This document shows, one piece after another, positions 9,022-41,807 of a stretch of DNA of 64,000 nucleotides (positions are counted from its first letter, which is position 1; every line of letters begins with the position of its first letter). Source of the stretch: Thermoflexia bacterium (lineage in GTDB: Bacteria > Chloroflexota > Anaerolineae > B4-G1 > DUEL01). The DNA is taken from NCBI GenBank assembly GCA_011192125.1, contig DUEL01000002.1, forward strand, positions 52,161-116,160, given 5' to 3'. The notes beneath the pieces are model-generated. The model searched no databases, was not told where the DNA came from, and saw only the letters and a program-made list of their open reading frames with translations. Made by a program: the position numbers and the translations under genes.

Positions 9022-9094
9022 CACCACAGAGGCACAGAGAGCACAGAGTCTCTCCCTCACCTCAACCCTCTGTATCCTCTGTGCCTCTGTAGTG
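9022..9094. repeat. CACAGAGG-palindrome element copy A
   Basis: caccacagaggcacagagagcacagag ... ctctgtatcctctgtgcctctgtagtg; inverted arms each of three CACAGAGG/CCTCTGTG units. Confidence 0.85.
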
Positions 9095-9099
9095 AGACA

Positions 9100-10233
9100 T
9101 CACAACGGTTTCTGGTATACCCGGAAGTGCTTGTACCGTTCTGCGCCCAACCGTTGGGCGACCAGGTTCACAATGAGATTATATTCCGAAGTGACGGAGC
9201 CGTCCAGCCACCGGTATCCTCCGGCGAGGAAGCCCTTCAGGACCTCTAGATAGAGGAGCGCGTCGATGCCCCTCTGTCGGTACTCAGGGAGGATGCCCAT
9301 CAGTTTGAAGGTCGCTACGTCCACCCGGCGGATCAGGCGGCGCAGGCGAAGCCAGTTGAAGGGGAACAACCGACCGTTCAGGTGGATCAACACCCGGTTC
9401 ACGTCCGGCAGAGCGATGCAGAAACCGACCGGCTCCCCCCCGACCTCGGCGAAGATCGCCATCCTTGGATCGACAAAGAGGCGCAGTTCATCTGCCATAC
9501 GACGGAAAGTCTCCTCGGGGATCGGGAGCCGATAGGGCAGGTGGGTCAGCGAGGCGTTGAAGAGCCGATGGAGGGTACGGACCTCCTCATCCCACGCCTC
9601 TAGCCGGACCGCGCGGGTGGTCACCCCTTGCCGTCGGGCCGCCTCCGCCACGCGACCCAACTCCGGCGGTAGGCTCTCCATCCGTTCCCCGATCTGCTCG
9701 CGGAAGGCCCGGTAGGCGTAGAGGTCCTGATGCTTCTCCATTCCATACCGCTCCAGGAAGGCGGCGTAATAAGGAGGGGTGTGGGCCTCCATCATCACCG
9801 GCGGGCAGTCGGCTCCGCCGATCAGCACACCGGGCCGGTCGCTGTTGTTGAAGTTCAGCGGCCCCCGCATCACCGTCGCCCCGTGCTCCCTCAACCACCC
9901 CGCTGCTACGTCAAGCATCCGAGCAGCGACGTCGTAATCCTCAATCACCTCGAAGAACCCAAACCCGCCCACCGCCTCCCCCAGAACTTCGATCAGCCAG
10001 CGGTCCACAAAGGCCGCCACCGTCCCCACCACCCGCCGCCCCTCCCGAGCCAGGAAGAGGGCGACGTCAGCACGCTCGAAGAAGGGATTGTGGGCCGAAT
10101 CGAGGGTGCGCATCATCTGGGAGATCAGCGGGGGGACCCAGTTGGGATCGTCCCGATACACCTGCCAGGGAAAGCGCACGAAAGCCCGCAGGTCGCGACG
10201 ATCGGACACCGGCTCGACGGTCAGTTGGGACAT
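9100..10233 (-). CDS. GNAT-fold acyltransferase, FemAB/COG3146-like (inferred)
   Basis: 377 aa; C-terminal GNAT motif A ILPEYRQRGIDALLYLEV; sits directly downstream of acyl-AMP ligase + ACP. Confidence 0.6.
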   Translation of the reverse strand: MSQLTVEPVSDRRDLRAFVRFPWQVYRDDPNWVPPLISQMMRTLDSAHNPFFERADVALFLAREGRRVVGTVAAFVDRWLIEVLGEAVGGFGFFEVIEDYDVAARMLDVAAGWLREHGATVMRGPLNFNNSDRPGVLIGGADCPPVMMEAHTPPYYAAFLERYGMEKHQDLYAYRAFREQIGERMESLPPELGRVAEAARRQGVTTRAVRLEAWDEEVRTLHRLFNASLTHLPYRLPIPEETFRRMADELRLFVDPRMAIFAEVGGEPVGFCIALPDVNRVLIHLNGRLFPFNWLRLRRLIRRVDVATFKLMGILPEYRQRGIDALLYLEVLKGFLAGGYRWLDGSVTSEYNLIVNLVAQRLGAERYKHFRVYQKPL

Positions 10234-10252
10234 CGGTCTGCACTCCTCACTT

Positions 10253-10284
10253 TCACCACAGAGACACGAAGGACGCAGAGAATC
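10253..10284. repeat. CACAGAGG element, solo left arm (copy B, degenerate)
   Basis: tcaccacagagacacgaaggacgcagagaatc without matching right arm. Confidence 0.5.
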
Positions 10285-10300
10285 TTAAGCGGTGTTCTGT

Positions 10301-12583
10301 TCAACCCTCGCCCTGCCACCACGCCAACAATCGGCCCAGCCGGGACTTCAACGGCCAGTACCGCTTGATCATTATCACCGTCTTGGGACATTCCCGGGCC
10401 ACCTTCTCCGGGATGGAGCCGAACAGCCGCTGCTCGAACAACCGCTCCGCCGACGCACCCACCATCACCAGGTTGTGATCCTCCGCCTCCTGCAGGATCC
10501 CTTCGACGACGCTGGAGGCCCGGGCCACCTTGCAGACCAGTGGGTAGTCATAGTGCCGGCTCTGCTCCTCCAGGATCCGGCAGACGCGAGCCTCCTGGGT
10601 CGGAGTGGCATCCTCAGGAAGAACGTAGAAGAGGGTGATGATGGACTCCTCCCCACTTTCCTCCCGATACTGACGGGCCTGAGCGATCGCCAGGTCGATG
10701 GCCAGGGCAGCGTGGGGTCCCCCGGCGGTGGGGATCAGAATGCGGCGAGGAGGTTCCCGGCGACGGAAACGGACGACGGCCAGATCACAGGGCGGGTTCT
10801 TCGCCACCAGGTCGATGACGCTGCCGAACGCCGCGCTCGGGTGGGTGGTGTAGCCAGGCCAGGCCAGGATCATCAGGTCGGTGCCCCGCTCGTAGGCAGT
10901 GTCGATGATCGCCGTGGCCGGATGCCGTCCCAGTCGGATCATCGTATGCACCGGCACATCGTACCGCTTCGCCTCTTCGATGACCGCCTCCAGGATCGGT
11001 TTCCCTTGCTTCAGGAAGAACCGCCCGTCGCTGATGCCCAACTGAGCCGGCACGCGGACCACGTGGAGGGCGAAGAGTTCGCCCCCCCGGTCCTTGGCGA
11101 TGGCCGCCCCGAGGATCCCCAACAGACGGGCTGTGTTGACGTCGGAGACAGGGATGAGGACCGAATACTGGGTGACGGCGACGATCTCCTCGTGGATGAT
11201 CCGCACCGGCTCCGGCAGCGCCTCCATCCGCCGGGCATAGGTGAAGTAGAAGAGCACCCCCAGCCCGATCCAGGCCAGGCTCGCGTACCAGGCGATGGGG
11301 CTAAGGTTGAACAGATAGGTGGAAAGGAAGATCTGGGAGAAGATCCCCAGGAGAGGAAAAAGGGGCAACAGAGGTACACGGAAGGGGCGACGGACGTCCG
11401 GCCGCTTCTTCCGCAAGACGATGACGGTGGCGTTGACCATCATAAACACGAGCAGGAACATAATGCTGGCCGAACTGGCGACGTCCCGGATCGGCAGAAG
11501 GACCGCCATCAGGATGACCAACCCGCCGGAGAAGAAGATGGCCCAGTGGGGGGTATGGCGCACCGGATGGACCTGACCGAAGAAGCCGGGCAGGTCGCGG
11601 TTGCGCCCCATCGCGAAGGAGACGCGGGAGGAGGAGTAGATGGTGGCGTTCAGGGCAGAAAGGGTGGACATCAAGCCGCCGAGCAGGAGGAGGAGCGAGC
11701 CGTAGGGCATCAGTTTCTCCGCCGCCTCCACCACCGCCTGTTCCTGGTAGAGGCCCAGGAACTGCCAGGAGGGGCTGCCGTCCGGAGGTTCAACCGCCCC
11801 CAAGAGCACGAAAGCGATGAGGAGGTAGATCGCGACGACGATCCCGATAGCGCCGAACATCGCCCGCGGGATGTTCCGGTCGGGATCGACCACCTCTTCG
11901 CCGGACTGAGCGATGATCTCATACCCCTGGAAAGCGATGGAGGTCAGCCCCATCGCGATGAGCACGCCGTGGAAGCCGTTGGGGAAGAAGGGGACGAACT
12001 CCGAGGTCCAGTCCGGCCGAAGGAAGAGGGCACGGAGGCCAAAGACCGCCAGCACGCCGAGGATGAGCACCTTCGCCATCGTGACGATGTTACCGACCTT
12101 GCCGGTCTCCGAGGCCCCCCGGTAATTGATGTAGGTGAAGAGGGCGGCGGCGACCACGGCCAACACCACTGACGCTTGCTCTTCGGGAAGGCCAAAGAAA
12201 GGGACCTGCGCCATCCGCAGCAGCCGGGCGGAGAAGGAACCAAAGCCCAGGGCATAGAGGCTACAGGCCACCGAATGGGCAAACCAGTCCATCCACCCGA
12301 CGAGGAAGCCGAAGAAGGGGGAGAGTCCCTCCCGCACCCACGGGTATCCCCCGCCTGCACCGGGAAAGGCGGAGCCCAGTTCGGCGTAACTGGCGGCGGT
12401 GAAGAGGGTGATCAGCCCGTTGAGGAGAAACGCCAGCATCAGGGCAGGCCCGGCCTCCCCGGCGGCGATCCCCGTCAAGACGAAAATACCGGCGCCGATC
12501 ATCCCACCGACGCCGATCATCGTGATATCGAACAGACCCAGGTCCCGGGTCAGGGTAACCTTGACCTCTTCGCGGTGGTTCAC
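10301..12583 (-). CDS. APC-family amino acid permease fused to C-terminal tandem universal stress protein (UspA) domains
   Basis: N-term DITMIGVGGMIGAGIFVLTGIAAGEAGPALMLAFLLNG with 12 TM; C-terminal ~290 aa with two USP-like Rossmann units. Confidence 0.8.
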   Translation of the reverse strand: MNHREEVKVTLTRDLGLFDITMIGVGGMIGAGIFVLTGIAAGEAGPALMLAFLLNGLITLFTAASYAELGSAFPGAGGGYPWVREGLSPFFGFLVGWMDWFAHSVACSLYALGFGSFSARLLRMAQVPFFGLPEEQASVVLAVVAAALFTYINYRGASETGKVGNIVTMAKVLILGVLAVFGLRALFLRPDWTSEFVPFFPNGFHGVLIAMGLTSIAFQGYEIIAQSGEEVVDPDRNIPRAMFGAIGIVVAIYLLIAFVLLGAVEPPDGSPSWQFLGLYQEQAVVEAAEKLMPYGSLLLLLGGLMSTLSALNATIYSSSRVSFAMGRNRDLPGFFGQVHPVRHTPHWAIFFSGGLVILMAVLLPIRDVASSASIMFLLVFMMVNATVIVLRKKRPDVRRPFRVPLLPLFPLLGIFSQIFLSTYLFNLSPIAWYASLAWIGLGVLFYFTYARRMEALPEPVRIIHEEIVAVTQYSVLIPVSDVNTARLLGILGAAIAKDRGGELFALHVVRVPAQLGISDGRFFLKQGKPILEAVIEEAKRYDVPVHTMIRLGRHPATAIIDTAYERGTDLMILAWPGYTTHPSAAFGSVIDLVAKNPPCDLAVVRFRRREPPRRILIPTAGGPHAALAIDLAIAQARQYREESGEESIITLFYVLPEDATPTQEARVCRILEEQSRHYDYPLVCKVARASSVVEGILQEAEDHNLVMVGASAERLFEQRLFGSIPEKVARECPKTVIMIKRYWPLKSRLGRLLAWWQGEG

Positions 12584-12683
12584 CTCTTGTACTCCTGGCA
12601 GGATGAAGTCAACGACAACGAAGGAAGATTATAACACAAGGTTGTAGGAAGAAAAGGAGCAGGACAGGTCGCAGAGGCGTAGG

Positions 12684-15359
12684 TCACGAGGACACGCGGC
12701 GCGAGGCGGCGCGGAGCCGCCGCTGCAGTTCGTTGAGCAGGACCAGGGCCTGCACCGGCGTCAGGTTGCCGATGTCCAGCCCGAAGATCTCCTGCACTAC
12801 CGCCCAGACCACCTCGTCGTCGGCCGGCACCAGCAGGTCTCCCCGCTCCCTGCTCACCGGATACACCGCCTCTATCTCCCTGCGCTTCCCCCTCTCCTTC
12901 ACCCCCTCCAGCCACTCCATCACCTCCCGCGCCCGCTCGACCACGTGGTCGTGGATGCCGGCCAGCCGGGCGACGTGGATGCCATAACTCTGGTCGATGC
13001 TTCCCTCGACGAGCCGGTAGAGAAACACCACGTCGCCCTCCTGTTCCCGCACCGCCATACAGACGTTGCGCGCCCCCTCCAACCGGTCGGCCAGGCCGGT
13101 CAGTTCGTGGAAGTGGGTGGCGAAGAGGGTGCGGGCGCCGATCCGGTCGTGTAACTCCTCCCCCACCGCCCACGCCAGCCCCATCCCGTCGTAGGTGGAG
13201 GTCCCACGCCCCACCTCGTCCAGCACGACCAGGCTGCGGTCGGTGGCGTGGCGGAGAATGTAGGCGGTCTCGCTCATCTCCACCAGGAAGGTGGACCGGC
13301 CCTGGGCGATGTCGTCGCTGGCCCCGGCGCGGACGAAGATGCGGTCGACCAGGCCGATGCGGGCCGACGCGGCGGGGACGAAACTGCCCATCTGAGCCAT
13401 CAGGACGATGAGGGCGACCTGGCGGATGTAGACGGACTTGCCGCTCATGTTCGGACCGGTGATGACCAGCAGGCGGCGCTCCTCCCCGTCGAGGAGGGTG
13501 TCGTTGGGGACGAAGCGGACCCCGTCCGGCAGCAGCCGCTCCACCACCGGATGACGGCCCTCCCGGATCTCGACGACGGTGCTATCGTCCACGAGGGGGC
13601 GGGTGTAGCCGTGCCGGGCGGCGACCTCCGCCAGGGTGGCCAGGACGTCCAACTCGGCGAGCACCCGCGCCGCCCGCTGGAGCCGGTCGATATGACCGGC
13701 CACCTGACGCCGCAGTTTGACGAACAGTTCGTACTCCAGTTCGTTGGCCCGGTCCTCCGCGGCCAGTATCTCCGCCTCGCGGGCCTTCAGTTCCGGCGTG
13801 GTGAACCGCTCGGCGTGGGTGATGGTGGCCTTCCGCTCGTACTCCGGCGGGACCAGGTGGGACTTGCTCCGCGGTACCTCGACGAAGAAGCCGAAGACCT
13901 GGTTGTATCGGACCCGGAGGGTGGGAATGCCGGTCCGCTCCCGCTCCCGGGCCTCGTAGGCAGTGAGCCAATCCCGCCCCTCAGCGGCGATCTGCCGGAG
14001 CCGGTCCAGTTCGGGGCTGTACCCGGCCCGGATGAGCCCGCCCTCCTTAAGGAGGTAGGGAGGGGCGTCCACCAGCGCGCGACCGATGAGAGAAGCCACG
14101 TCCCGCAGTTCGTCCAATCCTTCGTTCAGGGCCCGCAGCCGGGCGGAGTGGGCCTTGCCCAGCACCCGCTTGATGCGGGGGATGCGCTCCAGCGCCCGGC
14201 GCAGCGCGGCCAGGTCCCGGGCGTTGGCCGTGCCGAACCCCACCCGTCCCACCAGCCGCTCCACGTCGTGCAGGCCGTCGAGCAGCCGACGCAGGTCCGC
14301 CCGCAGGAACGCTCCTCCCGCTCCCCTGCTCCCTGCTTCTTGGCTTCCCACCAACTCCCCCACCGCATCCAGCCGCTCTTGGATCCGGTCCAGGTCCACC
14401 AGCGGCTGCAAGATCCACCGGCGCAGGAGCCGCGCGCCCATCGGGGTGACCGTCCGGTCGAGCACGCCCAGGAGGCTCCCTTCGACCTTCCCCTCGCGGA
14501 GGGTGCGGGTCAACTCCAGGTTGCGTCGGGTCACCCCGTCCAGGCCGAGGGTCGCCTGCGGATTATAGGTGCGCAGGCTGCGCAAATGGGCCAGGTCGGA
14601 CACCTGGCTCTCCTGGAGATAGCGGAGCGCGGCCCCGGCCGCCGCCGTCGCCAGGGGGAGGTCCTCGCAGCCATAGGGGGCCAACGTCGCCACGCCAAAG
14701 TGGTCCAGCAGCCGCTGCCGGGCCTCCTCGGGCGCGAAACCGGCGGGGTCGAGGGGGGAGATGCGGGCCGGGCGGACCCGGCGGAAGGGCGCGACCGCCG
14801 CCTCGTCGTCGGCCATCGTCGTGGGGAGGACGATCTCGCTGGGCGAGAGGAGGTCCAGTTCCTCCAGCAGCCGGTCGAGCGCGTCCGGCCCAATGAACTG
14901 GGTGGCGATGAACTCGCCGGTGGAGAGGTCTACCCCTGCCAGGCCCCACCCCTCCTTTGCAGGGGCCAGAGCGACCAGGAAGTTCTGGGCTTTCTCCTGC
15001 AGGAGGGATTCTTCGACGACGGTGCCGGGGGTGATCACGCGGACCACCTCCCGCTGGATGAGCCGTCGTCTGCCGGGGGGTTCCATCTGCTCGGCGATGG
15101 CGACCTTGTAGCCGCGGGCGAGGAGTTTGGCGACGTAGGCGTCCAGTTGGCGGTAAGGGACCCCGCACATCGGCAGTTTGACCCGCTTGGAGAACCGGCG
15201 GGAGGTGAGGACCAGGTCCAGTTCTCGGGAGGCGACGCGGGCGTCCTCCTCGAACATCTCGTAGAAATCGCCCAGGCGGAAGAGGAGGATCGCGTCCGGG
15301 AACCGGGCCTTCAGCCGTCGGTACTGGCGGAGCATCGGGGTCGCTTGCTCGGCGGTCAT
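12684..15359 (-). CDS. mutS: DNA mismatch repair protein MutS
   Basis: 891 aa; N-term MLRQYRRLKARFPDAILLFRLGDFYEMF, Walker A ITGPNMSGKS, C-terminal HTH region. Confidence 0.95.
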   Translation of the reverse strand: MTAEQATPMLRQYRRLKARFPDAILLFRLGDFYEMFEEDARVASRELDLVLTSRRFSKRVKLPMCGVPYRQLDAYVAKLLARGYKVAIAEQMEPPGRRRLIQREVVRVITPGTVVEESLLQEKAQNFLVALAPAKEGWGLAGVDLSTGEFIATQFIGPDALDRLLEELDLLSPSEIVLPTTMADDEAAVAPFRRVRPARISPLDPAGFAPEEARQRLLDHFGVATLAPYGCEDLPLATAAAGAALRYLQESQVSDLAHLRSLRTYNPQATLGLDGVTRRNLELTRTLREGKVEGSLLGVLDRTVTPMGARLLRRWILQPLVDLDRIQERLDAVGELVGSQEAGSRGAGGAFLRADLRRLLDGLHDVERLVGRVGFGTANARDLAALRRALERIPRIKRVLGKAHSARLRALNEGLDELRDVASLIGRALVDAPPYLLKEGGLIRAGYSPELDRLRQIAAEGRDWLTAYEARERERTGIPTLRVRYNQVFGFFVEVPRSKSHLVPPEYERKATITHAERFTTPELKAREAEILAAEDRANELEYELFVKLRRQVAGHIDRLQRAARVLAELDVLATLAEVAARHGYTRPLVDDSTVVEIREGRHPVVERLLPDGVRFVPNDTLLDGEERRLLVITGPNMSGKSVYIRQVALIVLMAQMGSFVPAASARIGLVDRIFVRAGASDDIAQGRSTFLVEMSETAYILRHATDRSLVVLDEVGRGTSTYDGMGLAWAVGEELHDRIGARTLFATHFHELTGLADRLEGARNVCMAVREQEGDVVFLYRLVEGSIDQSYGIHVARLAGIHDHVVERAREVMEWLEGVKERGKRREIEAVYPVSRERGDLLVPADDEVVWAVVQEIFGLDIGNLTPVQALVLLNELQRRLRAASRRVSS

Positions 15360-15392
15360 CGCGCTGGTTCTCCCTCGGTCCGTCCGTGCACG

Positions 15393-15420
15393 ATTATAGG
15401 CCGGGCGGGCGGGGCGTCAA
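15393..15420 (-). promoter_or_regulatory. sigma70-like promoter of mutS (TTGACG-16-TATAAT on minus strand)
   Basis: minus-strand TTGACG at 15420-15415, TATAAT at 15398-15393; mutS ATG 15359 ~27 nt downstream of predicted TSS. Confidence 0.55.
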
Positions 15421-15443
15421 GCCCCCCCCTCACCCATCCGCAC

Positions 15444-15500
15444 ATCCGCGCATTCGTGCATTCGCGCATTCGTACATTCGTGCATTCGTGCCCCATTCGC
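15444..15500. promoter_or_regulatory. tandem GCATTCGY octamer array (5-6 units) just upstream of mutS -35
   Basis: gcattcgt gcattcgc gcattcgt acattcgt gcattcgt gccccattcgc; 24 nt from -35 of mutS promoter; 125 nt upstream of padR -35. Confidence 0.6.
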
Positions 15501-15624
15501 GGACGGCCCCATCCTCCCGGGGATCCACGATCAGCGCCGCCGCCGAAGCGGTCACCCCCGGAGTATACCCCGGAAGCACAGGTGAGACAAACTGTCCTAC
15601 TTTCCACCTCCCACGCCTCTTACC

Positions 15625-15652
15625 TTGACAACCCATCCGATCTGGATATAAT
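15625..15652 (+). promoter_or_regulatory. consensus sigma70-like promoter of padR-ECF operon (TTGACA-16-TATAAT)
   Basis: TTGACA 15625-15630, TATAAT 15647-15652. Confidence 0.6.
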
Positions 15653-15663
15653 CTCCATCCAAG

Positions 15664-15680
15664 TATTCACATTGTGAATA
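15664..15680. promoter_or_regulatory. perfect 17-bp palindrome TATTCACATTGTGAATA: candidate PadR operator
   Basis: 8-bp arms around single central T, located +5 to +21 relative to predicted TSS and 20 nt upstream of padR ATG. Confidence 0.55.
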
Positions 15681-15700
15681 TCCACAAAGCGAGGAAGAAA

Positions 15701-17664: not shown

Positions 17665-17715
17665 ACCTCGAACCCTGAACCCTGAACCATAAATCTTGAA
17701 CGAGGAGGTAACACC

Positions 17716-18348: not shown

Positions 18349-19013
18349 GCCCCTGGGGGTATCTGCTCTTCACCCTCTGGTCGGCCGTCCTCGCCGTCCT
18401 CCTGCACGGCTGGCAACTGGCCGGTCTGGCAGCGGTCCAGATGGCCTTCGGCTGGGCCTGGAGCCGGGAGGCGCTGCGGATGCTGCGCCGCCCCCGGTTC
18501 TGGATCTTCGTGCTGACGGCGGTGGCCGTGGGACCGTTCCTGATCGGCGAGCCGGACCTGGTCCTGGGACCGCTTCGGATCTCACGGGAGGGATGGGCTG
18601 TCGGCGTGGAGATGGCCGGGCGAGCGTTCGTCCTCACCCTGGCCTTCAGCGTGGGCATCGGCGCCCTTTCCCTTTCCGACGTGGTGGCGGTGTTCGACCG
18701 CGTCGGCCTGCGGGGGCTGGGGTTCGCCGTCGGTGTGGCGATGAACCTGTTCGGAACCCTGCGGGAGATGGCGACGGTGACCTTCCAGACCCTGTGGCTG
18801 CGCGGGGGGCGGCGGCGGCCGTGGCTGACCCTGCGGCTCTTCCTGATCACCACGGTCGCCAACACCCTCCGCTACGGGGACGAAGTCGTGAGTGCAGCCG
18901 CGATGCGGGCCTTCGATCCGACATGGGGAGGCTCGGGAGCCCTACCTCTCCGCCGGGCCGACCTGTGGCTGCTGGCCGCGCTGGCGGTCTGCACGGGGAT
19001 TTTCTTTTCGTAG
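18345..19013 (+). CDS. ECF transporter transmembrane (T) component EcfT/CbiQ family
   Basis: Only the 3' 223 codons of track ORF 17739..19013 are coding: TTGA overlap with S-component stop, GAGGA SD 9 nt upstream; sequence LWLRGG...RLFLITTVANTLRYGDEVVSAAAMRAF typical EcfT C-terminal motif. Confidence 0.7.
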   Translation: MSPWGYLLFTLWSAVLAVLLHGWQLAGLAAVQMAFGWAWSREALRMLRRPRFWIFVLTAVAVGPFLIGEPDLVLGPLRISREGWAVGVEMAGRAFVLTLAFSVGIGALSLSDVVAVFDRVGLRGLGFAVGVAMNLFGTLREMATVTFQTLWLRGGRRRPWLTLRLFLITTVANTLRYGDEVVSAAAMRAFDPTWGGSGALPLRRADLWLLAALAVCTGIFFS

Positions 19014-19064
19014 GGGCACGGCCTCGCTGGGGAGGCTGTGCCCCTACGAGGGTACCGCCTAGAA

Positions 19065-19136
19065 CACCACAGAGACACAGAGGGCACAGGGTTCTCTCTG
19101 TATTAGAGATTCCTCTGCGCCTCTGTGGTAAAACCT
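19065..19136. repeat. CACAGAGG-palindrome element copy C
   Basis: caccacagagacacagagggcacagg...cctctgcgcctctgtggtaaaacc between convergent ecfT and rtcA. Confidence 0.8.
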
Positions 19137-21027: not shown

Positions 21028-21104
21028 CCACCACAGAGGCACTGGGGGGCAGAGTTTCTCATTCATCTCTGATCCCTCCGCGCCCTCTGTGTCTCTGTGG
21101 TTTC
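21028..21104. repeat. CACAGAGG-palindrome element copy D (overlaps 3' end of rarD)
   Basis: cccaccacagaggcactggggggcagag...ccctctgtgtctctgtggtttcac; last 15 codons and stop of rarD lie inside it. Confidence 0.8.
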
Positions 21105-29344: not shown

Positions 29345-29574
29345 CCCACCACAGAGGCACAGACGATACGGAGAAGAAGATATCTGGAGAAACTGGCTAC
29401 CTGACAGTTTGCCAGCCTCCCGCAGGTTTATGCACGGCTTAACAGCGCAAGCGACCAGCCAGGGCACCCTTTACGGCGCGTTCGGGTGCGTCGTAGGGAA
29501 CCTGCGGGAGGCTCCCTTCAAAAGTGTCAGGGGACTGATTGGAGAAACTCTGTGCTCTCTGTGCCTCTGTGGTT

Positions 29575-29576
<2 letters not shown>
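29345..29576. repeat. CACAGAGG-palindrome element copy E, split by a nested insertion
   Basis: left arm cccaccacagaggcacagacg 29345-29365; right arm ctctgtgctctctgtgcctctgtggtttc 29548-29576. Confidence 0.8.
29395..29540. mobile_element. 146-bp hairpin element (MITE-like) inserted in loop of copy E, flanked by 9-10 bp direct repeat (T)GGAGAAACT
   Basis: Direct repeats at 29386-29394 and 29541-29549; element has stem gcctcccgcaggtt/aacctgcgggaggc and outer stem cctgacag/ctgtcagg; homologous 80-bp copy at 48550-48632. Confidence 0.6.
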
Positions 29577-31635: not shown

Positions 31636-31685
31636 ACCACAAAGACGCGGAGGGCGCGGAGAAACCCAGCGCCCCCCGCGCCTCC
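31636..31685 (-). terminator. candidate hairpin terminator downstream of dodecin gene
   Basis: GGAGGCGCGG/CCGCGCCCTCC GC stem followed on minus strand by GCGUCUUUGUGG. Confidence 0.35.
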
Positions 31686-31693
31686 CCGGTGGT

Positions 31694-32087: not shown

Positions 32088-32139
32088 ATTGTGCGCTCGG
32101 ACGTTTCCATCCACCATCCCATCTTGAGGGAGAGAGCCG

Positions 32140-32574: not shown

Positions 32575-32640
32575 TGCGTCTTACGGCCTGCGACGTGAAG
32601 CGTGGGACGGAATGTGCGTATGCGTGAGACGTGATAAGGA

Positions 32641-34794: not shown

Positions 34795-34879
34795 GATGGA
34801 TGCATCCCTAGAGGGACGCGCGTTGGACCTCCCGCAGGGCCCTCTCCCCTGCGGGAGGTTTTTTCTACAGGGAGATAGG

Positions 34880-37144
34880 ATGCGGAACCGATCTTTGCTC
34901 CTGTTCCTGGTCCTGCTGGCGGGCCTCCTCGTGCCGGCCCCGCCCCCCGCCCACGCCGCCGCACTGGAACTCTACGGCACCTTCCACGCGATGGGGGTCA
35001 TCGTCACCCTGGACCCCGCCGACGATCCTGATGAGGACGCGACGGCCTACGTCGAATACCGGGTCAGCGGAAGCGATCCCTACCGCCAGGGCTTCCCCCT
35101 CTCCCGCGTCGACGCGGCCCGGTTCGTCGGGAGCCTCTTCTGGCTGGAGCCGGGCACCGCCTACGACGTGCGCGTCACCTTCAGCGACCCCGACGGCGAC
35201 CCGCTGGACGGCGTCGTTCTCACCGGCACCGGTTCCACCCACGCGGAGATCGTTATCCCCGCGCCACTCCACTCCTACTACGTCGCCCCCACGGGGAGCG
35301 GGACGGCCTGCACCCTCGCCGCCCCCTGCTCCCTGGCCGAGGGGCTGAGCCAGGCCGGGCCGGGCGACGAGGTCGTGTTGCGCGGCGGGGTCTACTACCA
35401 GGGCGAGATCGCTCTCCCTCGCTCCGGCACGGTCGGCGCGCCCATCCTCGTCCGTGCCTACCCCGGCGAGACGGTGGTGCTGGACGGGGCCGATCCGGCG
35501 ACCTTCACCTGGACGAACGTCAGCGGCGGGGTCTGGCGCACCACGGTCAACGCGTCCGACCCCCACCTGGTCCTGGCCGACGGTCAGCGCCTCTACCCCT
35601 ACCAGAGCCTCGCCGACCTCCAGAACCTCGCCTGGTCCATCCCTGGCTTCTACGCCGACGGCACGACCCTCTACGTCCGCCTGGCGGGGGACGCCGACCC
35701 CAACGGTGCCACAATGGTCGTCTCTCGGTATAACTATGCCTTCTACGTCGAGCAGGATTTCGTCTATTTCCTGGACCTGACCTTCCGCCACTACGGGCGG
35801 GGAAGTTACGCCAAGGCCATCTACTTCAACAACGCCAGCGACAACCTGGTGCAGGGGTGCACCTTCGCCGTCAACGACCTGGGGATCGGCATCAAGCGGG
35901 ATTCCCACCGCAACGTCATCCAAGATAGCGAGTTCTACGACACCATCTTCGACTGGCCCTGGGACGCGGTCAAGGCGGGCAGCGGGCTGGAGACCGGGGG
36001 CGTCCGCTTCTACGATCCGACCACGGGGCGGGGCAATGTCATCCGGCGCAACACCTTCCACGACTACTTCGACGGCTTCGGCGTCTGCCCTTCGTGGACG
36101 GCGGGGGTGACCAACGAGACCGACGTCTACGAGAACTTGGTCTACCGCGTCGGCGACGACGGGATGGAGACCGACGGCCAGTGCAGCAACGTGCGCATCT
36201 GGTCCAACACCTTCCACGACGTCCTGATGGGGATCTCTCTGGCCCCCGCCTACACCGGCCCGGTCTACGCCATCCGCAACCTGATCTACCGGACCGGCGT
36301 GGGGAACAACGACTACTCCGGCAGCCCCTTCAAGTTCAACAGCGGCTACGGCACCTCCGGCCCGATGTATCTCTTCCACAACACCTCGGACGCCGTCCTG
36401 CCGGGCAACAACGGCCTCTACGTCAAAGCGCCGGGCACCTGGAGCCTGATCTACGCCCGCAACAACATCTGGGCCGGGACCGCCTACGCGGTGAACAACT
36501 ACAACGCGGGCCAGCCCATCGACCTGGATTACGATGACCTGTGGAACGGAGGCAGCGGCGATCTGGTGTACTGGGGTGGTGTGCATTATGCCACCCTCTC
36601 CGTGTTCACCGCGGGCACGGGCCAGGAGCCGCACGGGATGAGCGTCGATCCGGGTTTCGCCGATGCGGGGAGCGGCGACTACACGCTGGCCCCCACCAGC
36701 GGCCTGGTCGATGCGGGCCTCCTCATCCCCGGCATCAACGACGACTATGTGGGGAACGCGCCCGACATCGGCGCGTTCGAGTACCCGGGCTACGGCTTCA
36801 CGCTGACCGCAGATCCCCCCTTCCGCGCCGTCTCCCCTGGCGGTGTCGCCACCTACACCCTCTCCGTCCGGCCCATCGGCCGGTTCACCGCCCCCGTCAC
36901 GCTGACCGGCGCCAGTCCCTCTCCCAGCCTGACCCTGGGCCTGGCCCCCACCGTCGTCGTCCCGCCCGGACAGGCCTTCCTCACCCTGACCGACACCCAC
37001 ACCGGCCCCGTGCTCCTGCCCGGTCTGTGGTATAATATCCCCGTCACCGGCACCGGCGGCACCGTCACCGAGACCACGACCGTCCGTCTCCTGGTCGGCG
37101 GGGCGCGCCTCTACCTGCCGGTGGTGATGAGAGGGAATTCATGA
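34880..37144 (+). CDS. secreted right-handed beta-helix (pectate-lyase-fold) protein with N-terminal FN3-like and C-terminal Ig-like domains
   Basis: Signal peptide MRNRSLLLFLVLLAGLLVPAPPPAHAAA after GGAGATAGG SD; parallel beta-helix repeats (NxxxxN/ASDN, hNNxIWxxT); YYVAPTGSGTACTLAAPCSL motif. Confidence 0.75.
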   Translation: MRNRSLLLFLVLLAGLLVPAPPPAHAAALELYGTFHAMGVIVTLDPADDPDEDATAYVEYRVSGSDPYRQGFPLSRVDAARFVGSLFWLEPGTAYDVRVTFSDPDGDPLDGVVLTGTGSTHAEIVIPAPLHSYYVAPTGSGTACTLAAPCSLAEGLSQAGPGDEVVLRGGVYYQGEIALPRSGTVGAPILVRAYPGETVVLDGADPATFTWTNVSGGVWRTTVNASDPHLVLADGQRLYPYQSLADLQNLAWSIPGFYADGTTLYVRLAGDADPNGATMVVSRYNYAFYVEQDFVYFLDLTFRHYGRGSYAKAIYFNNASDNLVQGCTFAVNDLGIGIKRDSHRNVIQDSEFYDTIFDWPWDAVKAGSGLETGGVRFYDPTTGRGNVIRRNTFHDYFDGFGVCPSWTAGVTNETDVYENLVYRVGDDGMETDGQCSNVRIWSNTFHDVLMGISLAPAYTGPVYAIRNLIYRTGVGNNDYSGSPFKFNSGYGTSGPMYLFHNTSDAVLPGNNGLYVKAPGTWSLIYARNNIWAGTAYAVNNYNAGQPIDLDYDDLWNGGSGDLVYWGGVHYATLSVFTAGTGQEPHGMSVDPGFADAGSGDYTLAPTSGLVDAGLLIPGINDDYVGNAPDIGAFEYPGYGFTLTADPPFRAVSPGGVATYTLSVRPIGRFTAPVTLTGASPSPSLTLGLAPTVVVPPGQAFLTLTDTHTGPVLLPGLWYNIPVTGTGGTVTETTTVRLLVGGARLYLPVVMRGNS

Positions 37145-37217
37145 TTTCACCACAGAGTCACAGAGGGCACAGAGGGAAAATCTAAATCTCTGTGTTCTCT
37201 GTGTCTCGGTGGTGAAA
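37145..37217. repeat. CACAGAGG-palindrome element copy F
   Basis: tttcaccacagagtcacagagggcacagaggg...ctctgtgttctctgtgtctcggtggtgaaa. Confidence 0.85.
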
Positions 37218-37243
37218 TACTTCAGGACCGAGGAGACGCATCG

Positions 37244-37444
37244 GTGATCCGGGTCAACAACCGGGACGAGGTCGAATGGGAGGAGGGAATGACCGTATCC
37301 GACCTTCTGGAGCGGATGCGGTACACCTTCCCGCACATCATCGTCAAGGTCGACGGGGAGGTCGTCCCTCGGGAGGAGTACCCCACCCGCACCATACCGG
37401 ACGGGGCGGACGTGCGGGTGATCCACCTGATCGCGGGGGGATAG
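37244..37444 (+). CDS. ThiS/MoaD-family sulfur carrier protein
   Basis: 66 aa ending ...VRVIHLIAGG (C-terminal Gly-Gly), beta-grasp-size. Confidence 0.7.
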   Translation: MIRVNNRDEVEWEEGMTVSDLLERMRYTFPHIIVKVDGEVVPREEYPTRTIPDGADVRVIHLIAGG

Positions 37445-37450
37445 ATTTTT

Positions 37451-37530
37451 ACCACAGAGGCACAGAGGACACAGAGTTTTCTCTCTCTTTTTTCAGAGAT
37501 TCCTCTGTGTCCTCTGCGTCTCTGGGGTTT
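37451..37530. repeat. CACAGAGG-palindrome element copy G
   Basis: accacagaggcacagaggacacagagttttctctctcttttttcagagattcctctgtgtcctctgcgtctctggggttt. Confidence 0.85.
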
Positions 37531-37571
37531 TCCCCTACGTCCTGCGCGGTCGGGCGGTGGTGCTGATCAGG

Positions 37572-39041
37572 TCATTCGCTTGTTCGCTCCCCCAGTCGTC
37601 GAACCATCTCCCCCGCATACCCCGCCAGGTCCTCCCGGCCCTGCCGACCCCACCATCCCCGCCACACCCCCAACTCCTCGACCAGTTCTGCCCGGTCGTC
37701 GAGACGGGATAGAAGTTCCTCCGCCGGGTCCAGCCAGCCGGTCCACAGGTAGGCGTAGCCCAGCCCCTTCCACGTCGCCGGGTTGCCCGGCTGCCGCTGA
37801 TAGGCCCGCTCCAGGTAGGCCACGGCCGCGTCGAAGTCCTCCCGCTCCAGGGCCATCAGCCCCAACCGGCGGTTGGCCGTCGGCTGGAGGGGGTCCCAGG
37901 CCAGCGCGCGCTCGAAGCAGGCGACGGCCCGCCCCGTGGCGGCCTCCCGCGCTGACCTTTCCAGATGAGGCGCGAGGTCGGCCCGGGCCTGCCAGAGGGC
38001 CCCCGCGTTGGCGTACCCCATCCCGAGGAGGGGCTGCCGGAGGAGCAGGAGGCCGGTGACCAGAAGAACGACCACGGCCACCAGGCCCCACCGCCAAGGG
38101 CGGGTCTGCCGTCTTTCGCTGACCCGTCCCGTCGCCACGGCAATCCCCATCAGGCCGAACCCCATCGCTGCCAGCCACAGCCCAAGGGGGAACGGCGGGG
38201 AGTCGATCAGGCCGTGGGCGAGGGCGGCGGTCGTCCCCAGCCAGGCGGCGCGGAACAGCGCGGGGGAGGGGCCCGACCGTTCCACTCGGACGACGAACCG
38301 GTAGAACGTCGCCAACAGCCAGACCACCGCTGCTAGGCCTATCACTCCCATCCCCAACCCGACCGCCAGGAGGAGGTTGTGCGGGGTGGTGAGGAAGGAG
38401 ACCGGGATCAGCAACTGGTAGCGGGAGTAGGCCAGGGCGAAGGTGTCCCCCAGGCCGACGCCGGTGAGGGGATAGTCGGTCAGGAGGTAGAGGCTGTTGC
38501 GGAAGAGATGAAGCCGGTCGATGGCGACCTGCTGTACCGGATGGAGGCTTGCCATCAGCGCAAGCCCTGTGGCCCCCGTCCCGATCAGCGCCCAGCGGAG
38601 CGGCCGACGACGGAGCCGTAGCAGTGCTGCCACCACCGCCGCCACGACCAACCCCACCCACGAGCCGAGGGAGCCGGAGCCCGCCAGCCCGACGACGACG
38701 AGGGCCATCGCCGCGCCCCAGGCCCACCGCCGCCACCCCCGCCCCGACCCGGTCAGCAAGAGACCCAGCGGGACCATCGCCTCGAGGAAGCCATCGCCCG
38801 CGTCAAAAGGGGCCTGGGGGAGGAAGGAGCCCACCGCCAGCAGGGCGGCGAGGAGGAGAAGCGCCGTTCCCGTTCGGCGCGGGGGGATCGCTCCGTGGGC
38901 GGCGATGAAGAAGAGGACAACACTTCCCAGAAGGGCCAGCAGCGCGGGCCAGCCGAGGGTCGGGTTGTAGGTGACCAGTGCCCCGATCAACCCGGCGATG
39001 GAGAGGAGAACCAGCGGGCCTCGAAAGATCGTTTTCATCAT
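37572..39041 (-). CDS. O-antigen ligase (Wzy_C)-family polytopic membrane protein with C-terminal TPR repeats
   Basis: ~11 TM helices with large periplasmic loop, C-terminal ALEREDFDAAVAYLERAYQRQPGNPATWKGLGYAY TPR units; strong GC3 bias. Confidence 0.75.
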   Translation of the reverse strand: MMKTIFRGPLVLLSIAGLIGALVTYNPTLGWPALLALLGSVVLFFIAAHGAIPPRRTGTALLLLAALLAVGSFLPQAPFDAGDGFLEAMVPLGLLLTGSGRGWRRWAWGAAMALVVVGLAGSGSLGSWVGLVVAAVVAALLRLRRRPLRWALIGTGATGLALMASLHPVQQVAIDRLHLFRNSLYLLTDYPLTGVGLGDTFALAYSRYQLLIPVSFLTTPHNLLLAVGLGMGVIGLAAVVWLLATFYRFVVRVERSGPSPALFRAAWLGTTAALAHGLIDSPPFPLGLWLAAMGFGLMGIAVATGRVSERRQTRPWRWGLVAVVVLLVTGLLLLRQPLLGMGYANAGALWQARADLAPHLERSAREAATGRAVACFERALAWDPLQPTANRRLGLMALEREDFDAAVAYLERAYQRQPGNPATWKGLGYAYLWTGWLDPAEELLSRLDDRAELVEELGVWRGWWGRQGREDLAGYAGEMVRRLGERTSE

Positions 39042-39046
39042 TCTCT

Positions 39047-39126
39047 ACCACAGAGGCACGGAGGGCACAGAGTTTTCTCCCATTTTTCAGAGATTCCTCT
39101 GTGTCCTCCGTGTCTTTGTGGTTTTA
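39047..39126. repeat. CACAGAGG-palindrome element copy H
   Basis: accacagaggcacggagggcacagagttttctcccatttttcagagattcctctgtgtcctccgtgtctttgtggtttt. Confidence 0.85.
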
Positions 39127-39135
39127 CCGCTTCCA

Positions 39136-40167
39136 CTACCGTGCCGGGTCCGGATAAAGGTCGGCGATCGGCTCGGGGACGACGAAGGCGATGGCGGCGG
39201 CACGGCCGCGCACCGCGTCCGGCACGAGGGTCGCTCCCGAGGCCCGCGCCACCTCATCCCGCAGGGTCGCCAGCGGCACCGCCAGGCCGATCAGCCGTCG
39301 GTCCTCGCTCAAGAAGAACCGCACATCGGCCGGGACGCTGACGAACGCTTCCTGGACCGGGTCCCACACGGAGAGGAACGGCGCATACGTTCCGGTCTCC
39401 AGGGTGTAGTACAGCCCTACCGCCGCCTCGTCCCCCAGGTCGGTGTTGATGGGCCGGGTGCCCGGTGGACGGCCGGTGGTCGGGTCCCCATCCACGTCCA
39501 GCACGAACAGCCAGTCGGCGTTCACCAGCGGGGTCTCCGGCAGCGGGTCGTAGAGGATGATCCAGAGGACCGCCTCCCCCTCCTGCGCCCACTCGTCCAG
39601 TCCGGCGGGCAGGCTCTCCCGCGCGGTCAGTGCTATCCGCAGGTCCGGCGCGACGCTCGCGTTCTGGATGTCGAGCCCAGGCATCGGCGGCTCCACCGGC
39701 TCGCCGCTGGTGTAGTAGGCCACGTCCCCCTGGGGATCGGCCGGCGGGAGGGGGGTCGGTGTGGGGACCGGGGTAGGCGGTGGCGTGGGGGTCGGCGGGA
39801 GGGTAGGAGTGGGGGTCGGGGTGCAGGGGATGACGTGGACCAGGGCCCGCCCACGCTCTCCCCCGGGCCCGGCCGCCTGCACCTCATAGTCGCCCGGGAC
39901 GTCTCCGGCGACGTAGTGGCCCTCCGGTGAGATCTCCCCGCCCCCCGTGGCCGCCCACTGCACGTCGCTGAGCGGCGGATCGGTCTCGAAGTCCACCGCC
40001 TGACCGGGGCACAGGTTCGCTTCCGGCGGGACAATCTGGAGGGCGCGGGCCACGGCGCGGGGGCGGGAGAGAAGTTGCACGACGCTGGCGACCGCGCCGA
40101 TGACGACGACGGCAGCCACTGCAATGGTGATCCAGGCGAGAATCCGACGGACGGGTCCTTTTAGCAC
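39136..40167 (-). CDS. hypothetical N-terminally anchored extracytoplasmic protein with PT-rich linker
   Basis: TM anchor RRILAWITIAVAAVVVIGAVASVV, linker CTPTPTPTLPPTPTPPPTPVPTPTPLPP, C-terminal domain of unknown function. Confidence 0.65.
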   Translation of the reverse strand: MLKGPVRRILAWITIAVAAVVVIGAVASVVQLLSRPRAVARALQIVPPEANLCPGQAVDFETDPPLSDVQWAATGGGEISPEGHYVAGDVPGDYEVQAAGPGGERGRALVHVIPCTPTPTPTLPPTPTPPPTPVPTPTPLPPADPQGDVAYYTSGEPVEPPMPGLDIQNASVAPDLRIALTARESLPAGLDEWAQEGEAVLWIILYDPLPETPLVNADWLFVLDVDGDPTTGRPPGTRPINTDLGDEAAVGLYYTLETGTYAPFLSVWDPVQEAFVSVPADVRFFLSEDRRLIGLAVPLATLRDEVARASGATLVPDAVRGRAAAIAFVVPEPIADLYPDPAR

Positions 40168-40190
40168 GATCCACCTCGCAAGATGTGCTA

Positions 40191-40266
40191 ACCACAGAGG
40201 CGCAGAGGACTCAGGGTTTTCTCCAAATTATGGAGTTTCCTCTGTGCCCTCCGCGTCTCCACGGTT
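40191..40266. repeat. CACAGAGG-palindrome element copy I (overlaps 3' end of tilS)
   Basis: accacagaggcgcagaggactcagggttttctccaaattatggagtttcctctgtgccctccgcgtctccacggttttt; tilS last 13 codons + stop inside. Confidence 0.8.
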
Positions 40267-41742
40267 TTTCTCGACAAAGCGGAAGCGGGCGACGCGGCGG
40301 GTCTCCGGGCCGACGATGGCCGTCTCCGCCACCCGCCACCCGCACACCCAGACGACCTCCCCACCAGCCACGAGCAGGGGGAGTCGGTCCCGCCAGGCGC
40401 GGGGGACCTTGGCGTTGATCATCCAGTCGGTCAGGCGGGGGCCGTGCCCCCCCATCCCCTGCGGACGGAACCGATCGCCCGACCGACGGGTCCGTAGCAC
40501 CAGCGGTTTTTCCAGCCGATCAGCGTCCAGGTAGGCGGTCCATCGATCCGGGTTGACCTCCACCTCCTCCAGCGTCCAGGTCTCCAGGATCTCCGCCTCC
40601 AGCGCCCAGCCGGCCTCGGGCAAAGGAGTGATCCCGGGCAGAGCGACCTCCGTTTCGACGCCTGGGGGCATAGTTGGCCCCTCGGGCGGCGGTTCGTAAC
40701 CCGCTTCGGCGATGGTCAGCGTGTCGTACCCCACCGTGAGCATCAGCCCACCAGGGAGGGTGGCCTGCGCGCCGGTGGTCCCTTCCTCCGCCACGCGGCG
40801 GGCGTCCTCCACGTGGACGAAGTCCACGTCCCGCAGGGTGGGGCGGAGGTGGTAGGCCGCCTTCCGGATCAGCGCCCGCCGGAGGGAGAGGGGCTGGTCC
40901 CGCCACCCGGCCCGGTCGAAGACGACGGCTTGCTCCGTCTCCTCCTGCACCACCTCGTCCCAGGCCCGGTCCCGCAGTTCCTCCAAGAGAGCGTAGTCGG
41001 CGGCGACCACGTGAGCGGTGTGGCAGAGGCGGCGGCGGATGTTGGGGTTGTAGGTCTCCAGCAAGGGAAGCAGTTCGTGCCGCAGCCGGTTGCGGAAGTA
41101 GGTGGTGTCCAGGTTGGACCGGTCGAAGCGGGGTTCCAGGCCATAGGCGGCGCAGTAGGCTTCGATCCCGGCGCGGGGGACGTCGAGCAGGGGGCGGATG
41201 AGGAGCGGGAGTGGGGAGGGGAGCGGGCCGTCGGCGACCGGTTCCAGGAGACGGTAGTCGGATAGAGGGGTAACGGGGAGCATCCCCCGCAGACCGGCCG
41301 GTCCCGCCCCGCGCAGGAAGTGCATCAGCACCGTCTCCGCCTGGTCGTCGGCGTTGTGGCCCACGGCGATCTTGGAGGCCCCCACGTCGCCGGCCACGCG
41401 AGCCAGGAAGGCGTACCGCACCCGTCGGGCCGCCTCCTCGAAGGCCAGTTTGTGCGCGCGGGCGATGGCGGGCACATCTTTCTTGGCGATGGTCGCGGGC
41501 AGCCCCCACCGCCGGGCCAGGTCGGCCACGAAGGCGGCGTCGGCATCCGCCTCCTCCCCCCGTGCCCCGTGGTGGAGGTGGGCGACGTGCAGGCGAAGGT
41601 GGTACTCCTCCCGCAGCCGGACCAGCAGGTGGAGCAGGCAGAGAGAGTCCGGCCCTCCGGAGACGCCGACCACCACCGCGTCGCCGGGGGAGAGCAGGCT
41701 GTGCCGCCGGATGAACTCCTGGACCCTGCGCAGGATATCCAT
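40228..41742 (-). CDS. tilS: tRNA(Ile)-lysidine synthetase
   Basis: PP-loop AVVVGVSGGPDSLCLLHLL, conserved N-terminal ATP-pyrophosphatase domain, 504 aa. Confidence 0.85.
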   Translation of the reverse strand: MDILRRVQEFIRRHSLLSPGDAVVVGVSGGPDSLCLLHLLVRLREEYHLRLHVAHLHHGARGEEADADAAFVADLARRWGLPATIAKKDVPAIARAHKLAFEEAARRVRYAFLARVAGDVGASKIAVGHNADDQAETVLMHFLRGAGPAGLRGMLPVTPLSDYRLLEPVADGPLPSPLPLLIRPLLDVPRAGIEAYCAAYGLEPRFDRSNLDTTYFRNRLRHELLPLLETYNPNIRRRLCHTAHVVAADYALLEELRDRAWDEVVQEETEQAVVFDRAGWRDQPLSLRRALIRKAAYHLRPTLRDVDFVHVEDARRVAEEGTTGAQATLPGGLMLTVGYDTLTIAEAGYEPPPEGPTMPPGVETEVALPGITPLPEAGWALEAEILETWTLEEVEVNPDRWTAYLDADRLEKPLVLRTRRSGDRFRPQGMGGHGPRLTDWMINAKVPRAWRDRLPLLVAGGEVVWVCGWRVAETAIVGPETRRVARFRFVEKNRGDAEGTEETP

Positions 41743-41748
41743 AGGTCT

Positions 41749-41807
41749 TCACCACAGAGACACAGAGGGCACAGAGTTTCCTCTGTGTCCTCTGTGCCTC
41801 TGTGGTT
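41749..41807. repeat. CACAGAGG-palindrome element copy J (compact, 3-nt loop)
   Basis: accacagagacacagagggcacagagtttcctctgtgtcctctgtgcctctgtggtttt. Confidence 0.9.

Follow-up and report, generated by a model that had tools for sequence, protein, structure and literature searches.

A cross-phylum family of palindromic elements in a Thermoflexia genome shares its ends with GxxExxY gene cassettes

Short palindromic sequences dispersed between bacterial genes have been described in several forms. Miniature inverted-repeat transposable elements (MITEs), for example the Correia or NEMIS elements of Neisseria, are short, high-copy sequences with terminal inverted repeats, which are co-transcribed with their neighbours, form long hairpins and have a longer, gene-carrying partner with the same ends. 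The repetitive extragenic palindromes (REPs) of Escherichia coli and Pseudomonas, with the related bacterial interspersed mosaic elements (BIMEs) and REP doublets (REPINs), are excluded from spacers that hold only promoters, show compensatory changes between their arms and occur as genome-specific variants. All these features recur in a family of hairpin elements carried by a 64-kb stretch (the window in what follows; G+C 66%) of a metagenome-assembled genome (MAG) of a Thermoflexia bacterium (Chloroflexota). This palindromic family spans phyla, and its ends are also the ends of cassettes that encode the GxxExxY protein (PF13366). The window elements are probably MITE-like members, lacking an open reading frame (ORF), of this GxxExxY-linked hairpin family, and their spread or homogenisation may have been aided by the nuclease. 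A dispersed palindromic repeat is in itself of a known kind; what appears to be new is its partner gene, the construction of its arms as heptamer arrays and its range across phyla.

Each arm consists of three heptamers, with the consensus CACAGAG, separated by gaps of 1 and 2 nt and set in a frame TCACC...GGTGA. The family can be defined by three C[AG]CN[AG]AG heptamers per arm, by arms in inverted pairs with the purine-rich arm first, and by (T)CACC...GGTG(A) at the ends; the window copies conform to this definition. Most window arms are CACAGAGnCACAGAGGnCACAGAG with 0-3 mismatches, and the A2 consensus is nnTTnACCACAGAGGCACAGAGGnCACAGAG...CTCTGTGTCCTCTGTGCCTCTGTGGTnAA. This anatomy separates the family from the systems that it otherwise resembles. 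In contrast to MITEs, the arms are three-heptamer arrays whose sequence is conserved across phyla, and the longer partner encodes a 125-aa PD-(D/E)XK nuclease rather than a known transposase; since neither a target-site duplication nor a transposase is demonstrable, the elements cannot be called canonical MITEs. A REP unit is an imperfect palindrome with a 5' GTAG head, whereas the arms here are direct heptamer arrays that start with (T)CACCACAGAG, and no gene for a REP-associated tyrosine transposase (RAYT) was found near the arms, there being no transposase among the scanned window ORFs and no recurrent one near arms at 120 loci. REP families are moreover species-specific; the present family spans phyla, and its arm is absent from 5,426 complete E. 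coli genomes. Rickettsia palindromic elements can likewise sit in frame within genes, but they are confined to one genus and have no associated gene, and no sequence relationship is apparent.

Two other systems combine a selfish insertion with a small gene. Homing endonuclease genes of the PD-(D/E)XK type, such as that for I-Ssp6803I, are small nuclease genes within selfish insertions, and homing consists of cleavage followed by gene conversion. The embedded small nuclease gene is a common feature, and the spread that we propose below would use the same mechanism; here, however, there is no intron or intein host, and the presumed target is a dispersed palindrome rather than a unique allele. 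The intervening sequences of 23S rRNA in Leptospira and Coxiella (PMC4990558) are also selfish insertions in transcribed DNA, with an inverted-repeat stem around a small ORF, but they carry the four-helix-bundle protein S23p in rRNA helices, whereas GxxExxY lies in mRNA spacers.

The link between hairpin and gene is seen where two arms bracket a coding sequence. In a Phycisphaerales and a Flavobacteriales genome stretch (L035 and L032), arms 420-500 nt apart enclose an ORF of ~125 aa, and the same ORF stands beside hairpins in a third (L096). All three products match TIGR04256, "GxxExxY protein", with E values of 1e-43 to 1e-45. The full-length cassette found in such genomes measures 0.45-0.6 kb, its arms bracketing the ~125-aa GxxExxY gene. 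For the reverse test, 80 metagenomic GxxExxY loci were taken as the best matches to a profile built from these three proteins. A CACAGAG-type arm with at most 5 mismatches is present at 30 of the 80, and 14 of the 80 have arms on both sides, the plus arm no more than 150 nt upstream and the minus arm no more than 150 nt downstream. When the upstream flank was compared with the reverse complement of the downstream flank, the score exceeded that of every shuffle in about 60 of 79 loci, and nearly all of these flank repeats are of one type, TTCAC-C[AG]CN[AG]AG with the heptamer three times over (variants include CGCAGAG, CACGGAG, CGCCGAG, CGCAAAG and CACCAAG). Within 200 nt of the ORF there are 3.73 arms per kb, and in the remainder of these loci 0.166 per kb, a 22-fold difference. 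When 1,793 ORFs situated within 1.2 kb of arms at the 120 loci were compared all against all, GxxExxY was the only small family that recurred close to the arms, and no transposase recurred.

ORF-less and ORF-bearing forms coexist, with common ends and common heptamer variants. Contig L127 carries an ORF-bearing element at 275-855 and an ORF-less element at 2023-2318, which agree at more than 90% identity over ~95 nt from the 5' end and ~90 nt from the 3' end, subterminal secondary hairpins included, and differ in their interiors. To judge from these sequences, this is the classical pattern of a putative autonomous element with its deletion derivative. The six heptamers of one cassette are usually all of one variant, for example six CGCAAAG, six CGCCGAG or six CACGGAG, and ORF-less hairpins on the same contig share the variant of the cassette (21 of 30 heptamers on seven contigs, permutation p 0.001). 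The cultured Chloroflexota species Kallotenue papyrolyticum similarly has one GxxExxY cassette and several short hairpins, of the CACAAAG/CACGAAG variant. The variant tracks protein similarity only weakly (60.7% vs 59.1% identity, p 0.03), so that homogenisation seems to be genome-wide and not by protein lineage.

The distribution of the arm is very broad. In a scan of one genome per GTDB species, the 24-nt sequence CACAGAGnCACAGAGGnCACAGAG has matches in at least 120 genome stretches, which represent more than 15 phylum-level groups, taxa being read from record titles; by chance, ~0.07 matches to 22 fixed bases would be expected in 596 Gb. Matches occur in Planctomycetota (including Gemmataceae, Isosphaeraceae, Pirellula and Phycisphaerae), Acidobacteriota, Chloroflexota, Desulfobacterota, SAR324, Myxococcota (including two complete Sorangium chromosomes), Bacteroidota, Cyanobacteria, Verrucomicrobiota, Gemmatimonadota, Nitrospirota, Armatimonadota, Sumerlaeia, Calditrichaceae, Rhabdochlamydiaceae (Chlamydiota), Hydrogenedentes, and Gamma- and Betaproteobacteria, and in one archaeal MAG, of Methanothrix. 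In many of them the partner arm follows at a distance of 2-220 nt downstream and the frame is again TTCACC...GGTGAA, and the element is the sole sequence that the window has in common with these loci. Among IMG/VR viral contigs the arm is found in 60 stretches, some of them as element-dense as the window. Bacteroides ovatus, B. finegoldii, Gemmatirosa kalamazoonensis and Scytonema have it on plasmids or secondary replicons, and cultured organisms that carry it include Bacteroides, Sorangium, Kallotenue, Gemmatirosa and Scytonema; the B. ovatus copy is unannotated and lies between gmd and the GDP-fucose synthase gene (fcl). The initial annotation of this DNA, made from its letters alone, had taken the family to be genome-specific and perhaps lineage-specific, a view that these matches overturn.

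The GxxExxY protein itself has the fold of a minimal PD-(D/E)XK nuclease of ~125 aa. Its D...ExK residues are invariant, and the AlphaFold model is confident (pLDDT 90.9). The family comprises at least 7,981 clusters at 90% identity, all with PF13366. A sequence search of the PDB gave no match, and thus no close solved relative by sequence, while PADLOC and PHROGs gave one marginal Cas4 match, for the L032 protein only, and none for the Kallotenue protein. The literature that we found on GxxExxY or PF13366 consists of passing mentions in a few papers, and the only functional statement among them lists PF13366 with the function "Unknown", in prokaryotes and viruses, with "multiple transfers" (PMC3424549).

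We propose that the short forms would have arisen from the cassette by internal deletion, and that the nuclease may help to spread or to homogenise them. A possible route is that the nuclease cleaves the palindrome and that gene conversion then mends the break, the ~30-bp arms providing the homology. Gene-less hairpins could then be both derivatives of the ORF-bearing form and landing sites for the ORF, and such a homing-like route would explain both the genome-wide concerted evolution of the heptamers and the presence of ORFs inside resident hairpins.

Several observations weigh against this proposal. We know of no PD-(D/E)XK protein of such a size that moves DNA alone. The 64-kb window and 98 kb from six relatives contain no GxxExxY gene, so that a copy acting in trans in the Thermoflexia genome is an assumption, and the gene is likewise lacking on the element-dense viral contigs. 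No direct repeat that could be a target-site duplication is evident at the flanks of the window copies or of the two L127 elements. The profile used for the reverse test was seeded from genes selected by the motif, so that the association may hold for a subfamily of PF13366 only. The weak tracking of protein by variant, itself a weak signal, would argue against tight co-evolution of protein and site. The Kallotenue cassette (L270 10001-10405) lies between genes for a SNF2-family helicase and an MmeI-like enzyme, near Cas10/Cmr2 and PDDEXK_1, and this defence-island-like neighbourhood of restriction and helicase genes hints at a role in host defence instead. On the sense strand of the cassettes there are 62 G.U against 76 A.C mismatches; with no excess of G.U, the palindrome is not demonstrably kept for the sense RNA.

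In the window, the 15-mer CACAGAGGCACAGAG with at most 2 mismatches has 15 matches, against 0.16 expected. The ten copies listed in the initial annotation are each present at the place given, as found by direct reading and with an inverted-repeat finder; the latter returned palindromes at 9019, 19066, 21030, 37144, 37451 and 41751, while the solo arm at 10253, the widely spaced pair at 29345/29575 and the copies at 39047 and 40191 were confirmed by direct reading. Four further copies or arms came to light in more permissive searches and when related genomes were compared. The copies and arms of the window are as follows.

1907..1983, decayed copy with both arms recognisable (right arm CCTCCGTGCCCTCCGCATCTCTGTGGTG), in the divergent spacer upstream of the acyl carrier protein (ACP) gene
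9019..9097, intact hairpin between the stop of a GNAT gene (9100) and the start of an AMP-ligase gene (9013), both on the minus strand; dG -42.7, z -7.7
10253..10282, solo left arm TCACCACAGAGACACGAAGGACGCAGAG between the stop of a permease gene and the start of the GNAT gene
19066..19129, intact hairpin in a convergent spacer, 14 nt past the RtcA stop, with an unrelated palindrome adjoining at 19008-19049
21030..21101, hairpin between the gene for an EamA transporter and rsmG, the EamA ORF entering its right arm
29345..29575, composite copy in the convergent uvrB/usp spacer, arms at ~29347-29373 and 29545-29573
31636..31693, old decayed copy with both arms present, between the dodecin gene and uvrB, with an orthologous copy in relative L264 (~8124-8198)
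37144..37218, intact hairpin that starts at the stop codon of the gene for a beta-helix protein, 25 nt upstream of thiS; dG -48.8, z -9.95
37451..37528, intact hairpin in a convergent spacer, 6 nt past the thiS stop, after which the thiS strand reads TTTT
39047..39122, intact hairpin that fills the spacer between a 343-aa gene and a Wzy_C gene; dG -54, z -12
40191..40265, hairpin that overlaps the 3' end of tilS and supplies roughly its last 10 codons and the stop
41749..41808, best-preserved copy, with 26-bp arms that are 92% complementary, 6 nt upstream of the tilS start; dG -46.8
44718..44746, solo arm ACCACGGAGGCGCGGAGGGTACAGAGG just upstream of the start of a plus-strand gene
48634..48687, strongly decayed copy that adjoins a palindrome of a second family at 48572-48603

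The short copies measure 60-79 bp, with arms of 18-34 bp, and have no coding capacity. A loop motif, TTTTCTC...GAGATT, is common to several of them. Five successive spacers between 37.1 and 41.8 kb hold one copy apiece, as had been noted; from 49 to 64 kb, where tightly packed minus-strand genes lie, most of them left unannotated, there is no copy. The initial annotation had read the anatomy correctly as a two-arm hairpin, and its assignment to a dispersed, degenerate inverted-repeat family of the REP/MITE kind stands, as does the solo arm at 10253. It was also right in setting CRISPR aside, the units being inverted and the spacing irregular (0.3-10 kb, one per intergenic spacer), and segmental duplication is excluded in that the flanking contexts of the copies all differ.

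Comparison with related genomes, which had been suggested as a check, shows that elements have been gained and lost since divergence and that insertions are polymorphic. The uvrB-usp spacer, which is 234 nt with its nested element here, is 9 nt in L263 (uvrB 88% identical at the nucleotide level), while in L262 (93.5%) it is 261 nt and contains decayed arms as well as other palindromes. Between the 343-aa gene and wzy there are 94 nt here, with the element, against 11 nt and no element in L265. Upstream of tilS (window 41743-41815), three relatives have a gene of 86-89 aa in place of the hairpin at 41749-41808. In the dodecin-uvrB spacer, by contrast, the decayed copy has an ortholog in L264 (85%), so that some insertions are old. 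The relatives are too diverged for these empty and filled sites to be aligned base by base.

Folding gives stems of 18-30 bp in eight short window copies, with dG of -31 to -54 kcal/mol and z of -4.5 to -12. Constraint on the structure was assessed on 74 distinct short hairpins drawn from a wide range of taxa. Most heptamer positions show conservation of at least 90%, whereas variation, with co-variation, is found in the linker bases and in the outer frame. The counts for column pair 5/66 are 21 AU, 21 CG, 5 UA and 3 GC, and those for pair 15/56 are 25 GC, 14 AU, 10 GU and 7 UA. Double changes occur in 18 of 33 pairs, and the observed score was reached by none of 500 shuffles and by no slid register. 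Pairing of the palindrome is thus maintained. Conservation of primary sequence in six repeated heptamers goes beyond what pairing alone demands and points to sequence-specific recognition. The purine-first configuration, in 57 of 62, is likewise a real constraint. A purine arm upstream of the ORF was also considered as an orientation signal and was rejected; it follows from the geometry of the palindrome, both strands of which read CACAGAGG...CCTCTGTG.

UvrB and TilS of the window are 100% identical to proteins from a MAG assigned to a Thermoflexia bacterium of the Chloroflexota. The window genes that were scanned are all housekeeping genes, ACP, MutS, MutS2, a penicillin-binding protein, RtcA, RsmG, UvrB, ThiS, TilS, PrfB and methionine aminopeptidase among them. 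Scanned against Pfam and NCBIfam, the window ORFs include no transposase or integrase, and a scan for tRNA and tmRNA gave no match. Each intact copy starts 0-14 nt past the stop codon of the upstream gene or overlaps it; six are in tandem spacers (including two that overlap gene ends), three in convergent spacers and none in a divergent one. The preference for gene 3' ends or convergent spacers that had been seen in the sequence thus holds in its first part, copies lying just past gene 3' ends, but for most copies the flanking genes run in the same direction, the next start codon comes 5-25 nt further on, and the site is often inside an apparent operon. In tandem spacers the element takes up nearly the entire gap. 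At 9019, 39047 and 41749 the next start codon lies 5-8 nt past the ...CTGTGGTGA end, so that this GGTGA or GGTAG end is the sole Shine-Dalgarno-like sequence available. The reading frames of tilS and the EamA gene continue into the right arm (window 40228-40265 and 21059-21101, respectively). TilS has 504 aa here and 494-497 aa in relatives, and the element therefore supplies its C-terminal codons and stop.

Such placement could suggest that the hairpins are RNA elements selected by the host, whether intrinsic terminators, stabilisers of mRNA 3' ends or RNase III sites, and that this function is the reason for their existence. The stems are indeed very stable, and they lie right past stop codons and in three of five convergent spacers. 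The dodecin-uvrB copy folds much better on the sense strand (-44.3 vs -32.1 kcal/mol), and the sense strand folds better in five of seven tandem copies, which is a hint only. Intrinsic termination calls for a G+C-rich stem followed by a U-tract on the transcribed strand. Only the copy at 37451, with TTTT next to it on the thiS strand, fits this description and so resembles a canonical terminator of a flanking gene. In four tandem spacers (21030, 39047, 40191 and 41749) the T-run is antisense to the genes, and a consensus terminator scan over 28-43 kb, a span with six of the copies, reports no terminator at any of these. The position of most copies within apparent operons, just ahead of the next start codon, also speaks against such a function, as do the cassettes, with their lack of G.U excess. 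Near-identical sequence across phyla, solo arms, decay, nesting and presence/absence differences are instead hallmarks of a selfish repeat. We therefore regard host selection of an RNA function as an unlikely origin of the hairpins, and a dedicated terminator role, which the initial annotation had suggested, is unlikely as well. In host transcripts the 26-30-bp stems may rather be passive RNA structures, which could act as sites of processing or stability, or could occlude the GGTGA Shine-Dalgarno-like end that precedes several downstream start codons.

An alternative that keeps the connection with GxxExxY is that the short hairpins are immobile, being scars of cassettes that lost the ORF by deletion between the arms, and that the arms serve to silence a potentially toxic nuclease gene by folding back on it. 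In the cassettes, the distance from the end of the 5' arm to the start codon has a median of 10 nt, and the two often abut (GAG-ATG), a configuration that places the GAGG of the second heptamer at Shine-Dalgarno distance. By analogy with fold-back inhibition in IS10 and hok, the CCUC-rich 3' arm, once paired, would mask the ribosome-binding site of the GxxExxY gene. Internal deletion does occur, as in the L127 pair, and the loop motifs of the window copies could be retained subterminal bases. This reading would nevertheless require 13-14 scars in 49 kb, with no intact cassette in the window or in the relatives' 98 kb, an improbable number of independent insertions and deletions, and hairpin-dense contigs have no GxxExxY gene; we think it improbable that the hairpins are scars alone. 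That they are MITEs or REPINs moved by a conventional enzyme encoded elsewhere in the genome (a DDE or a RAYT/IS200-like Y1 transposase), with GxxExxY as a frequent passenger or neighbour, is very unlikely: terminal inverted repeats, small size, high copy number and extragenic location fit MITEs and REPINs generally, and the examined genome fragment has no GxxExxY gene, but the 1,793 ORFs near arms include no recurrent transposase while GxxExxY recurs, no transposase is found among the scanned window ORFs, the arms are direct heptamer arrays and not REP-type palindromes with a GTAG head, and no target-site duplication was found.

The reading that we prefer, of MITE-like derivatives of a GxxExxY-linked family, can be extended into a more tentative one, which we put forward as possible rather than probable. 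Hairpin and GxxExxY protein together might constitute an unrecognised class of selfish element without a transposase, in which the nuclease would recognise or cleave the palindrome (as a cruciform, as a hairpin or through its CACAGAG array), and repair or gene conversion by way of the arms would bring about spread and homogenisation. The gene-less hairpins would then be both deletion derivatives and homing sites, and the class would have spread through many bacterial phyla, into viruses and into at least one archaeal lineage, littering operons, and sometimes reading frames, with 30-bp stems. If this is true, a cassette moved by a minimal PD-(D/E)XK nuclease would represent a new mechanism of mobility.

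The association has consequences for annotation and for the protein family. A conserved palindromic element gives the GxxExxY family a concrete, testable substrate, and the link to such an element is a likely explanation for its horizontal spread, the "multiple transfers" on record. The repeat fills operon spacers, provides host genes with stop codons and Shine-Dalgarno-like ends, and can sit in frame, and it is present, unannotated, in cultured, tractable organisms, for example B. ovatus (within the gmd-fcl operon), Sorangium and Kallotenue. Rfam gave no match at the gathering score, a relaxed E-value yielding only spurious, sub-threshold microRNA-precursor hairpins, and no paper on the arm sequences or their variants was found in the searchable literature.

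Some individual loci deserve mention. In K. papyrolyticum (L270, JAGA01000003.1), three hairpins of the CACAAAG/CACGGAG variants, at 12061-12119, 13680-13745 and 14424-14487, lie in frame within one uninterrupted ORF of 1417 aa for an MmeI-type methyltransferase/restriction enzyme, where they encode peptides such as HKGTKDTKEDPKENLRDLRASV. L096 has, at 6727-6990, four to five left arms in tandem, repeating every 48 nt, and one right arm that closes the series. The array recalls a CRISPR at first sight, but the ~18-nt spacers behind the arms are near-identical, and it is therefore a tandem duplication. Two GxxExxY loci, L272 and L273, encode an identical protein (P0265), followed by identical downstream genes, in two different upstream contexts that part exactly at the left end of the cassette, ...ATTCACCACAGAGG (~2960-2975). 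Their divergence would reflect either recombination or mobility at the end of the element or a chimera of metagenome assembly at the repeat. An apparent case of an aldehyde dehydrogenase gene split by a cassette was discarded, since these are two adjacent complete or partial genes.

Other palindromes occur beside the elements in the window. The loop of the composite copy at 29345-29575 holds an insert of ~170 nt, which is a nested palindrome of a second family, GCCTCCCGCAGGTT...AACCTGCGGGAGGC. Members of this family lie at 29415-29512, within the loop of that CACAGAGG element, and at 48572-48603, beside the decayed CACAGAGG copy in the convergent spacer 48532-48680. Both have the outer sequence CTGGCTACCyGACAGT...GTCA, and the second-family arms of the window number four exact matches, or 11 with at most 2 mismatches, against 1.18 expected. 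A third palindrome, TCGTAGGGGCACGGCCTC-gctggg-GAGGCTGTGCCCCTACGA at 19008-19049, has a REP-like GTAG head and lies directly 5' of the element at 19066-19129; it occurs once in the window. In L262, the uvrB-usp spacer (~4000-4110) is filled with similar GTAGGGGC... palindromes.

Two of the neighbouring genes are also of note. The 86-89-aa gene that the relatives have between a 404-aa gene and tilS (L265 7684-8000, L266 1466-1726 and L267 7548-7817) has a weak match to EF-Tu domain 2. In the window, the prfB ORF (43032-44321) is listed with 429 aa, while its NCBIfam match begins at residue 83; a wrong choice of start or the usual programmed frameshift region may account for the long N-terminal extension.

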